A stretch of 64,000 bases of DNA from a bacterium (GTDB taxonomy: Bacteria; RBG-13-61-14; DATKZS01). The DNA lies in contig CAXXFL010000002.1 in NCBI GenBank assembly GCA_963674965.2, positions 256,001 through 320,000 of the forward strand, written 5' to 3'. Below are positions 10,924-15,872 of the stretch, piece by piece. Below the pieces are notes generated by a model. The model made no database searches. It was not told the origin of the DNA and saw nothing but the letters and a program-made list of their open reading frames with translations. A program made the translations under genes and the position numbers. Every line of letters starts with the position of its first letter. The stretch's first letter is position 1.

Positions 10924-11913
10924 TTAATTGTCATACTTCTTTTGTAACTTGTCGAGAATTTCCTCTTTGGTAAATCTTGATATATTTTCTGCGGAAAAAA
11001 TGATCTCCGTTGAGCCACTTATTACGTCCACTGGCTTTTCCCATGGTTTATGGAAGTCTTCTGAATTTTTAATAAACTTGAATAAACAAGTGGTCGGATC
11101 TTCACCATTCAATATCTTCAAGTAAGAAAGAACGTTATTTATAGACATTGAAATCAAAACAAGCCCGTTGACAAGATTTTCAGGAACCCAATTGATAGAC
11201 TTTCTGACTACACGGAAGTGAGGGTGGCTTCTCGAACAAGGGGCTCCATCAATATCCTTGACTGTTAAAAATGATGATCCGAACTCACTTCTGCCTACTA
11301 TATGCATTTTTTCAGGAGGGGCCTGAACTCCCGGTGTACTTTCCAATCCCACCGCAAATCCAAAACCTCCTGGAGATGCCCTGAAACCATGCTTGATGCT
11401 GTTATACTCACTTACCTGCATCTCATCTATAAAATCTCCACAGAATCTCGACCAAAGATCGCTAAACGACCTTGCCGTTTCTTCTTCATCTTTTGCTTTG
11501 CCCTTCAGGTAGGCATGAATCCTCTTTGATACTTCGTACCAAGAGATATATTTCATTCCTAGCATGTTAAAAATGTCTCTACTTCCACCTTCGATTTTTT
11601 CAACCAAGTTCCTCACTTGGTGAGGACGGCTTTTTAATATCCAGCCGTAGACGCAGTTAGGCGCTTGTATTGTTGAGCACAGCAGACTGAATAGAGTCTC
11701 GAGACCATGATAGTAGGCCGTTTTGAGAGCCATTGATGCAAGCAACTTGTCATCGCCCTCAATGTGTTCAATATGGGCTTGGGCGAGGTATTTAAAATAA
11801 TTGGGGTTTACCGAGTTAATGAATTCCATATTGTTTTCATGAAGGTCCAAATCCCATACACAATAAGGAGTCGAGTCGACTTTAAACATGACGCATTGAA
11901 GCTGAAGGGTCAT
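10924..11913 (-). CDS. AT-rich hypothetical protein, possibly HEPN-like
   Basis: 329-aa ORF with SD (GGAGG), visibly lower GC than its neighbours; EYNSIKHG motif. Confidence 0.7.
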   Translation of the reverse strand: MTLQLQCVMFKVDSTPYCVWDLDLHENNMEFINSVNPNYFKYLAQAHIEHIEGDDKLLASMALKTAYYHGLETLFSLLCSTIQAPNCVYGWILKSRPHQVRNLVEKIEGGSRDIFNMLGMKYISWYEVSKRIHAYLKGKAKDEEETARSFSDLWSRFCGDFIDEMQVSEYNSIKHGFRASPGGFGFAVGLESTPGVQAPPEKMHIVGRSEFGSSFLTVKDIDGAPCSRSHPHFRVVRKSINWVPENLVNGLVLISMSINNVLSYLKILNGEDPTTCLFKFIKNSEDFHKPWEKPVDVISGSTEIIFSAENISRFTKEEILDKLQKKYDN

Positions 11914-11991: not shown

Positions 11992-12174
11992 GGTAACCCA
12001 TAGCTCATCTATGTGGGCGACCGAAGGGAGCAGGTCGGCGCGTATAACTTTAATACCCAACCCGCGACTTTATATTTTCCAAGCATCACCGCGGGTGATG
12101 CGGCGCCCCCATTCTTGGTACCACTCGACCTGCTCGCTATGCTCGCCCACATAGCAAAAGCTATGTGGGTTACC
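11992..12174. repeat. REPIN/MITE-like element: two inverted ~46-bp REP-like ends
   Basis: Left end GGTAACCCATAGCTCATCTATGTGGGCGACCGAAGGGAGCAGGTCG; right end reverse complement GGTAACCCACATAGCTTTTGCTATGTGGGCGAGCATAGCGAGCAGGTCG; internal hairpin GCATCACC-GCG-GGTGATGC. Confidence 0.7.
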
Positions 12175-12203
12175 GGCCGGGCCATACTTTATGTCGTTTA
12201 GGC

Positions 12204-12293
12204 TTATCTTTCCGTCTGGGTCCTCCACCAGTTTTTGTCGTGCTTGACGTAAAGCTCGAGGAAGACCTTTTGTCCCCAGAAGTTCTCCAGGAT
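12204..12293 (-). pseudogene. Remnant resembling the 3' end of GTPase Era (KH domain)
   Basis: ILENFWGQKVFLELYVKHDKNW resembles the Era C-terminal motif KVFLELxVKVxKNW. Confidence 0.55.
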
Positions 12294-12499
12294 CTGGGCA
12301 GGATCTGGGGACAGCATACTTATCTCGCTCATATTGCAGGGCAGAGAGGCGTTTATGAATATTCCATCAATATCCACTGTAAGAGAACGCAGATGATTTA
12401 CAATAATTTGGTATACTGCCACCATATCTTCAAAAAATATTTCCGATGGGGGCTTACGCCCCCATCAAATGGTAAAAGGGATAAAGAACTAAAGTGTAA
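12290..12499. repeat. ~210-bp 3' flank duplicated behind both FGE paralogues (copy 1)
   Basis: Near-identical to 14274-14485; ends in a tandem GGATCTGGG(G) junction. Confidence 0.9.
12445..12466 (-). promoter_or_regulatory. GC-stem hairpin 33 nt after stop (DGR cis-hairpin candidate or terminator)
   Basis: GATGGGGGC-GTAA-GCCCCCATC, perfect 9-bp stem. Confidence 0.65.
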
Positions 12500-13819
12500 T
12501 CAGTCCCCGGCGCAACGGAACCCCCTGGAGTTGAACTGGAGAGAAGGCACATAGCCGTTCCGGCCTGCTACGCGCAGGTGGTTCGTAGGGAAGTCCCAAC
12601 TACCGCCGCGCACAACGCGATGCGTACCTGACGGAGGACCGGGAGGATCGTTGGTCGGACTTGAGCTGTAATACGTTGATGAATACCAATCATTGACCCA
12701 TTCCCGAACGTTGCCCGCCATGTCGTAAAGCCCGTAGCCGTTGCCCCCGTAATACGCAACAGTCGAAGTATCGTTGTCCCAGGGATCGCCCGAGTCCAAG
12801 TAATTGGCGTCCGTCCCGCTGATGCTGTCGCCCCAGGGATAGCGTTTGCCGGTAAGGCCGCCTCTGGCCGCATACTCCCATTCCGCTTCGGTCGGAAGCC
12901 TCTTGCCCGCCCAAGTACAGTAGGCCGTGGCCTGGTCCCAACTGACGTAGATTACCGGGAAGTGGTTATAGTCCGGGTTGCCGTAGTAAGAGGGGCGGGT
13001 ATAGCTCGAAGAATTACCCGGCGGGGTGCATCCCCCGCAGCTCACGCAGGTTGCGTACTGCTCGTTGTTCACCTCCCAGATGTCCATGTAGAAGTCCGAG
13101 GTGATGCAGACGTTATGGACCGGGCATTCAAAGGGATATCCGCAGGAATCGCTTGAGTCTCCCATGTTGAAGCAGCCCGCGGGGATAAATGCCATTTGTG
13201 ATACAATTCCACAACTCAATTCCTGGTAGTCAGTTTTGCCATTACAATTATTGTCGATTCCGTCCCAGCATTCTTCGTTTGCTTCGGTTGCGCCTGGATT
13301 GATTGATGCATTTCCATCATGACAGTCATTGCCTCCAACAAGAGTGGATTTGTATCCATCGCCATCTTGATCTGGGTTAGAAAAGGCTATTGAATAGATG
13401 CTGTCCATATCAACACTCAGCGCATACGGCACGCTCGCAATCCTCGCCCTCGGCGTCATCTCCGCGTCCGCGTCAACCTTTACCCCCATCCAGACTTCCT
13501 TGTGCTTCTGGAACACCGCGGCCAGGCTGCTCTCCGTGCCCGGCGTGATCGTGCCCGAACCGATGAGCAGGTTATAAATCCCGCCCGTGACCACCACGTC
13601 CTCCTGTAACACCGTGAGGTACGGCGTCCCGCCCGACTCCACTCCATAGAACGCAAAGGTCAAGTCCACGGTAGTCCCGTCCGCAAGAGGCTGGCCCGCA
13701 GCGTTCGTGAGTCTCCCCTGATAGTTGATAAGCTGCGGAGCGGACTGCGCCCAGGCAATGCCCACCACCACGGCCAGTACTAAAACCCCAACCAAAGCCG
13801 TCCCGATCTTAGCCCTCAT
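12500..13819 (-). CDS. Secreted FGE-sulfatase (SUMF1/C-type lectin fold) protein, DGR target-like, paralogue 1
   Basis: Signal peptide, LINYQGRLT domain, Cys/Asp DCHD..INPGA.E..DGIDNNC motif, [29 protein letters not shown]...GFRC. Confidence 0.92.
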
Positions 13820-13919
13820 TACTTAATTCTCCCTCTTCGAAATTTGTCAGCAATTCATCCATACGTTACCACGCTGTAAAATACAATACCACCCCCCCCA
13901 TCTCGATCGTCAACAGCAA

Positions 13920-14270
13920 TATCCTTGCTCTCGGCGTCATCTCCGCGTCCGCGTCAACCTTCACGCCCATCCACACGTCCTGGTGGTTCTGGAAGACAGC
14001 GGAGAGGCTTGGCTCGGTACCGGGCGTTACCGTGCCCGAACCGATGAGCAGGTTATAAATCCCGCCCGTGACCACCACGTCCTCCTGTAGCACCGTGAGG
14101 TAAGAGGTCCCGCCCGACTCCACGCCATAGAACGCAAAGGTCAAATCAACGGTAGTCCCGTCCGCAAGAGGCTGGCCCGCCGCGTTCGTAAGCCGCCCCT
14201 GGTAATTGACAAGCTGCGGAGCGGACTGCGTCCAGGCAATCCCCACCACCACGGCCAGTACTAAAACCCC
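13920..14270 (-). pseudogene. Truncated third paralogue (N-terminal domain only; native start and C-terminus missing)
   Basis: [28 protein letters not shown]...MTPRARI is nearly identical to both full genes and is fused to flanking repeat DNA. Confidence 0.85.
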
Positions 14271-14273
14271 AAG

Positions 14274-14485
14274 GGATCTGGGGACGGGATCTGGGGACAG
14301 CATACTTATCTCGCTCATATTGCAGGGCAGAGAGGCGTTTATGAATATTCCATCAATATCCACAGTAAGAGAACGCAGATGATTTTCAATAATTTGGTAT
14401 ACTGTCATTATATCTTCAAAAAATATTTCCGGTGGGGGCTTACGCCCCCATCAAAGGGTAAAAGGGAAAAAGAATCAAAGTGTAA
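14274..14485. repeat. ~210-bp 3' flank duplicated behind both FGE paralogues (copy 2, with hairpin at 14431-14452)
   Basis: Near-identical to 12290-12499; TGGGGGC-GTAA-GCCCCCA hairpin at the same spacing from the stop. Confidence 0.9.
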
Positions 14486-15787
14486 TCAGTCCCCAGCGCA
14501 ACGAAATCCAATGTCGTAGTACAGGTCCGAAGGGTCGAAGTAGTCCCGGTAGGCCACGCGCAAGCCGTCCGTACTGCCGCCCCAACCCCCGCCGCGAAAA
14601 ACGCGACACGTACCTGACGGAGGACCGGGAGGATCGTTGGTGGGACTTGAACTGTAATAAGATGATGAATACCTGTCGTTCGTCCATTCCCAGACGTTGC
14701 CCGCCATGTCGTAAAGCCCGTAGCCGTTGGCCGCGTAATACTCTACTTCAGAGGTGTCATTGTCCCAGGGATCGCCCGAATTCCAGTAATTGACGTCCGT
14801 CCCGCTGATTGTATCGCCCCAGGGATAGCGCTTGCCGGAAAGTCCTCCACGGGCCGCATACTCCCACTCAGCCTCCGTCGGCAGCCGCTTGCCCGCCCAT
14901 GCGCAATAGGCCGTGGCCTGGTTCCAGTTTACGTAGATCACCGGGAAATTGTCATAGGTCGGGTTGCCGTAATAAGAGCCCCGGGAATAACTTGAAGAAC
15001 TGTCCGGCGCGGCGCAGACAGCAGCGTCCACGCAGGCCTTGTACTCCGCGTTGGTAACCTCGTGAACGTCCATGTAGAAACTGGAGGTGATGCACACGTT
15101 GTGGACCGGAAGCTCTTCGCTGTAACCCTCGCCGAACGCGTCGCCCATGTTGAAACAACCGGCGGGGATGAGGGCCATGTTAGGCGGAGTTTTAGAGCAA
15201 TCCTCATCATAACGTCCATCACAATCATTATCCAGGCCATCACACTTATCAACGGCCCCAGGATAAATTGAGGCATTATTGTCATTGCAATCGTCATTGG
15301 GAGTGATTGAGCTTTCCGGCTTGTAATGTCCGTCGCCGTCGAGGTCGAGGTTGGCTAAGTTAACGGTTTCGGCTGTTTCCGCCTTTATTGCATATGGGGC
15401 CGAGCTAATCCTGGCCCGCGGCGTCATCTCCGCGTCCGCGTCCACCTTCACCCCCATCCACACCTCCGCGTGTTTCTGGAACACCGCGGCCAAGCTGGTC
15501 TCCGTGCCCGGAGTGATCGTGCCCGAGCCGATGAGCAGGTTATAAATCCCGCCGGTGACCACCACGTCCTCCTGGAGCACGGTGAGGTACGGCGTCCCGC
15601 CCGAGGCCGCGCCATAGAAGGCGAACGACAAATCAACCGTGCTCCCGTCCGCCAGCGGCTGGCCCGCGCCGTCAGTAAGCCGTCCTTGATAATTCACCAA
15701 CTGCGGGACCGACTGCGCCCAGGCAATGCCAACCACCACGGCCATAACCAAAACCCCAACCAACGCCATCCCGATCTTAGCCCTCAT
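14486..15787 (-). CDS. Secreted FGE-sulfatase (SUMF1/C-type lectin fold) protein, DGR target-like, paralogue 2
   Basis: Same architecture as 12500-13819; DCND..IYPGA...CDGLDNDCDG motif; RGGGW...GFRC C-terminus. Confidence 0.92.
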   Translation of the reverse strand: MRAKIGMALVGVLVMAVVVGIAWAQSVPQLVNYQGRLTDGAGQPLADGSTVDLSFAFYGAASGGTPYLTVLQEDVVVTGGIYNLLIGSGTITPGTETSLAAVFQKHAEVWMGVKVDADAEMTPRARISSAPYAIKAETAETVNLANLDLDGDGHYKPESSITPNDDCNDNNASIYPGAVDKCDGLDNDCDGRYDEDCSKTPPNMALIPAGCFNMGDAFGEGYSEELPVHNVCITSSFYMDVHEVTNAEYKACVDAAVCAAPDSSSSYSRGSYYGNPTYDNFPVIYVNWNQATAYCAWAGKRLPTEAEWEYAARGGLSGKRYPWGDTISGTDVNYWNSGDPWDNDTSEVEYYAANGYGLYDMAGNVWEWTNDRYSSSYYSSSPTNDPPGPPSGTCRVFRGGGWGGSTDGLRVAYRDYFDPSDLYYDIGFRCAGD

Positions 15788-15843: not shown

Positions 15844-15872
15844 ATTACAATACTACCCCCCCCCGATGTCAA
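15844..15872 (-). promoter_or_regulatory. Sigma70-like promoter with a G9 tract in the spacer
   Basis: TTGACA-TCGGGGGGGGGTAGTAT (17 nt)-TGTAAT. Confidence 0.6.

Follow-up and report, generated by a model that had tools for sequence, protein, structure and literature searches.

The window, meaning the whole 64,000-nt stretch of DNA that was analysed, carries two DGR target genes on its minus strand. Target gene 1 (12500..13819) encodes a protein of 439 aa with the C-terminus GFRCAGD, and target gene 2 (14486..15787) one of 433 aa with the same domain layout: a MopE-type repeat plus a C-terminal FGE-sulfatase/C-type-lectin domain, which matches PF03781 (E values of 3e-60 and 2e-63) and has the variable region (VR) at its own C-terminus. 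The N-terminus of the first protein is hydrophobic and, judged by eye, likely a signal peptide. The VRs, at 12500..12625 and 14486..14611 (both minus strand), were compared with the template repeat (TR) of a complete DGR cassette on contig C6 of the same genome. VR1 differs from this template at 22 of 41 adenines and at 7 of the 85 other sites, and VR2 at 26/41 and 9/85; the differences are thus strongly A-biased, yet fall short of the near-perfect fit found in three other paralogs. Identity between VR and TR runs up to the stop codon, after which the two diverge wholly. A 5′ fragment of a third target paralog (13899-14240, residues 21-138) lies between the two genes, and C runs, which are G runs on the coding strand, lie upstream of both (about 13891-13899 and 15856-15866).

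The first-pass annotation had placed a GC-rich hairpin at one fixed distance behind both genes, and each copy does lie exactly 33 nt after the TGA stop codon. Copy 1 (12445..12466, minus strand) has a 9-bp GC-rich stem closed by the loop GTAA (TTAC on the other strand) and reads GATGGGGGC-GTAA-GCCCCCATC on the coding strand. Copy 2 (14431..14452, minus strand) had been described as a one-mismatch repeat of the first and is just that: the mismatch falls on the second pair from the base, leaving 7 perfect inner pairs and the same GTAA loop. As DNA single strands, the 73-nt regions have folding energies of −11.7 kcal/mol (z = −3.8) for the first and −9.1 kcal/mol (z = −2.8) for the second. Stem covariation among six aligned hairpin copies was confined to one pair, no more than in shuffles, and an Rfam search returned no match at E up to 1. 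The T run, said to be offset from the stem, begins 7 nt after the 9-bp stem of copy 1 in an AT-rich tract (12430..12444, minus strand) that continues, in three other copies, into the avd start codon.

The 33 nt between each stop codon and its hairpin form a spacer with a regular structure. Spacer 1 (12467..12499, minus strand) consists of four degenerate, T-rich 8-nt units and one further nucleotide (TTACACTT TAGTTCTT TATCCCTT TTACCATT T), with a lag-8 identity of 0.60 (shuffle p = 0.014), and spacer 2 (14453..14485, minus strand) likewise of four 8-nt units plus one nucleotide, with a lag-8 identity of 0.68 (p = 0.002). The non-coding flank was also correctly judged to be better conserved than the variable region beside it, as 50 of its 55 positions are identical between the window copies versus 87/126 in the VR; within the VR, identity is 73/85 at template non-A sites and 14/41 at template A sites, and the coding sequence upstream of the VR stands at 254/300.

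Two truncated copies of a miniature inverted-repeat element of about 140 bp were found by blastn at 12302..12424 and, after the second hairpin, at 14288..14410 (no strand assigned). The element occupies the place that avd holds in an intact cassette and has 16 blastn matches in the genome, window copies counted. Joined to it at 12159-12291 are 133 nt that repeat, at 95%, the 3′ terminus of an Era-like GTPase gene at C4:307833. An AT-rich ORF of 329 aa (10924-11913, minus strand), without a match in Pfam, NCBIfam or PHROGs, sits beside the decayed island and is convergent with a tyrosyl-tRNA synthetase gene.

A search of the 6.5-Mb genome with the exact 14-nt core of the hairpin gives five sites, all behind genes that end in GFRCAGD and a stop, and all at an identical distance from that stop. 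As the exact core occurs only behind target paralogs, with one copy in a complete cassette, the hairpin can be assigned to the DGR target site. The cassette (G000:C6:955138-952199) comprises the cognate target (955138-953825), followed by a spacer and hairpin of the window type, avd (953754-953410; NF033474, 98 bits versus a cut-off of 80), the reverse transcriptase (RT) gene (953400-952324) and the template repeat (952324-952199). Its RT is the single DGR-type enzyme found in the genome; two other RT matches resemble group II intron fragments. The cassette is probably in a prophage, because a terminase match lies 10 kb away, while a search for a portal near it gave no PF04860 match. The cognate gene is preceded by a G12 run resembling the runs before the window genes. 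Comparing the hairpin with the 3′ end of the TR had also been proposed, and the TR proves to be followed by a different sequence.

The proposal that the hairpin could serve as a tag for remote targets holds in part. The exact core leads to the C6 cassette and two more paralogs with no unrelated match, but it is neither complete nor discriminating: with one mismatch allowed, 7 of the 12 matches in the genome are unrelated; a paralog at C2:337210 fits the template at 85/85 non-A sites without such a hairpin, and three hairpin-bearing genes, both window genes included, differ at 7-10 of these sites. Gene ends resembling those of the window occur in 7 of 40 related genomes, and just 1 of the 12 gene ends examined has the exact motif, the loops varying among GAA, TTT, GTG, CTTG and TTTA. 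(A search of seven relatives for the RT gave partial matches only in three, and four had no match with this query.) The spacer, passed over as filler before the hairpin, turns out to be the more widely conserved part. Allowing up to 9 mismatches, it finds seven sites in this genome, all behind target paralogs and with zero false matches, including the hairpin-less gene at C2:337210 and a decayed copy at C1:833409. With seven true matches versus five for the hairpin core, it is the better search tag for remote targets in this genome. At least 25 of 32 spacer bases are kept in 7 of the 12 gene ends of the relatives, while the hairpin sequence changes.

Taken alone, the hairpin adds an unremarkable case to an established class of DGR element. 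The BPP-1 target site contains (GC)14, a 21-bp IMH and a hairpin/cruciform, and hairpins of this kind have GC stems of 7-10 bp, a 4-nt loop of consensus GRNA and a position 4-34 bp from the VR end, at the target but not at the template (PMC3240598). The window hairpins agree in stem (9 bp, 7 perfect pairs in copy 2), in distance (33 nt after the VR) and in being absent after the TR, so their recognition as the known DGR type stands for stem and distance; the loop, GTAA, lies outside the sense-strand GRNA consensus given in that paper. The evidence supports classing them as DGR target-site hairpins of the BPP-1 kind. The 33-nt non-coding spacer, which has no counterpart after the TR, has a less direct parallel, since in BPP-1 the IMH lies inside the TR/VR repeat and a 4-bp spacer follows. 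However, the BPP-1 IMH has TGA at positions 5, 13 and 20, that is, in steps of 8 and 7 nt, and IMH* has none; four of the five differences between IMH and IMH* create the TGA triplets. By eye this phasing resembles that of the window spacer, although the units are of a YTG type in BPP-1 and of a TTT type here. The setting also differs, as the genes are chromosomal here and the RT lies on another contig.

The phasing was followed beyond this genome in a set of 80 genome and 80 viral DGR loci picked by RT similarity. TR/VR pairs were found in 121 of 161 loci, our own cassette counted, and the set was reduced to 71 loci under 80% RT identity, 66 of them with a usable VR. In a first pass, the lag-8 score exceeded z = 2 in 30/57 genome VR flanks versus 0/57 TR flanks (one mis-anchored row dropped), and the lag-7 score did so in 27/43 distinct viral VR flanks versus one TR flank. 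In the reduced set, 7/8-nt periodicity (p 0.05) is present in the 40 nt directly after the VR in 36/66 loci versus 5/65 after the TR; farther out to both sides, from an offset of 40 nt onwards, between 0 and 5 loci pass, and at offset 0 the remaining 30/66 do not. Control rates were 23/500 for gene ends of this genome, 12/200 for T-rich ones and 15/401 for other gene ends within DGR loci. Additionally, TG pairs 7-8 nt apart occur in 16/20 VR ends versus 3/20 TR ends (3.2 expected), by a criterion set post hoc and in a sample with many BPP-1 relatives.

Periodic flanks were found in 42/63 Avd-bearing DGRs versus 3/11 Avd-less ones (p = 0.02), where five of the 11 are crAss-like relatives and ANMV-1, scored as Avd-less by profile, does have Avd according to PMC4372165. 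BPP-1 and four other named Avd-bearing phages give 0/5 in the 40-nt test, 3 of 8 VRs pass in five further named phages, and altogether the named Avd-bearing phages are periodic in only 3/10 loci. Other Avd-bearing DGRs, L058, L069, L078 and L082 among them, have no array. In L335-L340 and L345, where Avd had no match, the array is mostly absent, and in several of them, by eye, a short inverted repeat extends over the end of the VR instead. We found no description of a periodic array beside DGR targets in the openly available texts that were searched, so novelty is provisional. Work on the Legionella DGR may mention repeats near its stem-loop. With that proviso, the phased 7/8-nt spacer is the new part of these gene ends and, of the two elements in the mark they carry, likely the more general one and the one that has been overlooked: hairpins accompany about a third of DGRs, and the phased array lies behind over half of the targets tested.

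A GC hairpin follows the VR in 25/66 surveyed loci and the TR in 8; among the 25, there are 17 loops of a G..A type, 3 GTAA and 1 strict GRNA. These hairpins bear on a second reading, in which the hairpin would chiefly serve the target genes as an intrinsic transcription terminator, with the offset T run as its tail. A terminator scanner does flag copy 1 once G-T pairs extend the stem to 12, an AT tract follows 12/66 VRs versus 3/66 TRs, and terminators are reported after a minority of DGR targets (PMC5758913). Copy 2, however, goes unflagged, and the 9 terminator-like matches in the region are near the chance level of 6.1 ± 2.4 in shuffles. There is no U tract directly behind the stem of copy 1, and a T tract stands in that position in 5 of the 25 related hairpins. 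In the intact cassette some 17 nt separate the hairpin from the start of avd, which is on the same strand, and A's follow the hairpin; the exact core follows no unrelated gene, and a terminator leaves the phased spacer unexplained. A weak terminator role of the hairpin is possible, but we consider it improbable that termination is its main function, and return to the hairpin as part of a DGR target site.

Taken together, the sequence comparisons make it probable, at roughly 70%, that the 55 bases after each stop codon are a cis-acting DGR landing mark, in which the 8-nt units likely act as an IMH directionality element and the GC hairpin as an efficiency enhancer. We infer that the spacer array is the equivalent of the IMH and that the hairpin is an optional homing enhancer; a DGR stem-loop is described as important, though not as a strict requirement, in PMC12875486. 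Under this model, RT and Avd would turn the template RNA into cDNA mutated at adenines, with the RNA primer paired to the last bases of the gene; the phased spacer would mark the DNA as recipient, possibly through binding of its repeated units by the Avd pentamer, and the role of the hairpin would be to keep the strand open. The RNA primer has been proposed to pair better with IMH than with IMH* (PMC5703328). In this genome, its complementarity spans 8 nt at the target end and 7 nt at the template end, and it does not match the array; in the survey, by a crude test, the primer match was longer to the VR in 20 cases, longer to the TR in 18 and equal in 27. Complementarity between the spacer array and the template-3′ RNA of this genome is 5 nt at best.

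How the mutated cDNA finds its target is called unresolved in the available texts of PMC12875486 and bioRxiv 10.1101/2023.10.23.563531, and the phased array offers a concrete, mutable candidate for a general DGR recipient signal, one that could guide the retargeting of DGRs for directed evolution. Cellular DGRs such as that of Treponema similarly have several FGE-sulfatase/CLec targets that are paralogs of one another and lie at a distance from the RT, and inverted repeats occur in 127/372 DGRs (PMC5758913), near our 25/66. Remote targets are found there almost only in non-phage DGRs, whereas the engine here is probably in a prophage, and the available text mentions no periodic spacer. The partial DGRs of the DUSEL4 nanoarchaea (PMC4372165) also have a target, a VR and cis elements without an RT, and are described as either fossils or remote targets; their GRA triloop is in coding sequence, unlike the GTAA loop here, which lies in non-coding DNA.

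A different account would make the array and hairpin passively copied leftovers, for instance an arm of repeat-flanked cassettes of four-helix-bundle (Avd-like) genes, with no role in homing. Such a history is suggested by the position of the array directly upstream of avd in most cassettes (45 of 79 VRs adjacent to avd) and by the window copies, which are duplicates in decayed mobile DNA. Yet the array stands behind 24 of 34 VRs that are not adjacent to avd, VRs inside the reading frames of gut phages included, and upstream of 1 of 10 avd genes that have no VR in front. It is the target, not avd, that the array accompanies. Furthermore, where second targets are compared with cognate ones, conservation often stops right behind the array, and the retention of the spacer in related genomes despite a changing hairpin also argues against passive copying. 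We give the leftover account little credence.

If the 55 bases are a landing mark, it remains intact at the window genes, and the VR sequences suggest that it is now little used. Relative to the C6 template, non-A differences out of 85 number 0 at C6:1175939, 0 at C2:337210, 1 in the cognate gene, 7 in window gene 1, 9 in window gene 2, 9 at C7:109317, 10 at C2:335772 and 19 at C4:80523. Upstream sequence and spacer place the gene at C2:337210 in the C2 family, with 83-89% to the remaining C2 paralogs versus 77% to the cognate gene, and its VR nevertheless equals the template at every non-A site. Because the exact-match tract stops at the template boundaries, rewriting in trans from the C6 template is the simplest reading of this sequence; its hairpin may have been lost after the last rewrite. 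Window gene 2, in turn, shares non-A differences with C2:335772, C4 and C7. A sister cassette, since lost, is the probable writer of the window VRs, to judge from these common differences, from avd stumps behind two hairpins (C6:1176135 and C2:335576) and, at C4:80637, from a diverged template-3′ sequence. With their 7 and 9 non-A differences from the template, the window genes show that an intact mark is insufficient evidence of activity; rewriting of these genes is now probably infrequent, and they look frozen. No sister TR fitting the window VRs better was recovered, a search of phage DNA gave one short RT match only, and a metagenome scan gave 3 loci. Assembled contigs included none with a variant in VR1, and assemblies drop rare variants; X1 and X2 come from one sample, possibly the source, and contigs matched at 80% likeness are mostly paralogs.

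That the window genes are instead active remote targets of C6, with the same cis role for the mark and with non-canonical RT errors in place of a lost template, fits the intact mark, a four-fold-degenerate divergence of 2/22 and 2/19 in the VRs versus 3/11 and 3/10 just upstream (small counts) and the targets described in PMC5758913 that carry seven non-A differences while others fit perfectly, but is very improbable given that gene 2 shares 7 of its 9 difference sites with C2:335772, six with the same letter, that just 2/7 (gene 1) and 4/9 (gene 2) non-A differences adjoin a mutated adenine, and that three other targets fit the template at 84-85 of 85 non-A sites.

Two other paralogs were also noted. 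Behind the gene at C4:80523-80743 (L007), the place of spacer and hairpin is taken by a sequence with 87% likeness to the RNA region that follows the C6 template; its first stem is changed but still pairs. VR-TR recombination may here have collapsed a sister cassette. The locus at C6:1175939-1176290 (L005) equals the cognate gene over 300 nt upstream, through the flank and into the avd start, after which the avd stump diverges, and reads as a recent conversion on an older copy.

Avd is a possible reader of the array. Five protomers of the Avd pentamer grip flipped-out RNA bases with identical residues (bioRxiv 10.1101/2023.10.23.563531; PMC6182149), and Avd is a homologue of PF05635, a family of four-helix-bundle proteins (PMC10053308). 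The use of the same residues by five protomers makes the reading of repeated units plausible, and Avd may, as a hypothesis, bind those of the array; the site described is nevertheless an RNA one, the Sp stem-loop after the TR, and the available texts do not report Avd binding to target-side DNA. The idea that the array tracks Avd and not RT was rejected, since whole-protein covariation is equal (Avd 0.157, RT 0.159); with tree distances, the values are 0.093 for Avd and 0.202 for RT. Avd columns 53, 65 and 69, picked post hoc, are the best predictors of array type (r −0.30 to −0.36), and 4/111 Avd columns reach r −0.25 versus 2/283 in RT. Tyrosine or phenylalanine at position 53 goes with TTT-type units in 24/25 cases and other residues with YTG units in 19/26. 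For the TR, used as a control segment, the best column is equally strong (−0.375), and array type changes only 3 times on either tree. A residue-to-base code of Avd is thus unestablished, given post hoc columns, an equal TR control and some three independent changes. In a model of the Avd fold, residue 53 is placed in the loop between helices 2 and 3, with 65 and 69 one turn apart on helix 3. We tentatively propose, while thinking it rather doubtful, that a DGR target bears, just after the VR, a marker array of three to five units of 7-8 nt in phase, the BPP-1 IMH being one case, which the Avd pentamer would read at about one unit per subunit, with residues 53, 65 and 69 setting the unit sequence. 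If true, Avd would gain a role in target recognition, and there would be a rule for which genes a DGR can rewrite.

In one phage DGR clade (L121, L129, L132, L139, L140, L143, L150, L152, L153, L155, L157, L158, L160, L162), the Avd domain is fused behind an N-terminal domain of about 170 aa. Several members have two or three targets, behind which 7-nt units plus a hairpin typically stand.

Finally, REP-like palindromes of about 30-38 nt were observed at the junction of gene end and spacer, with the stop codon directly before them, in one other paralog (G000:C1:833373), in two relatives (L174, L179) and in the low-depth contig X1, at the position corresponding to 12499/12500 of the window. This junction is a recurring insertion point, and an insertion there could switch off the target.
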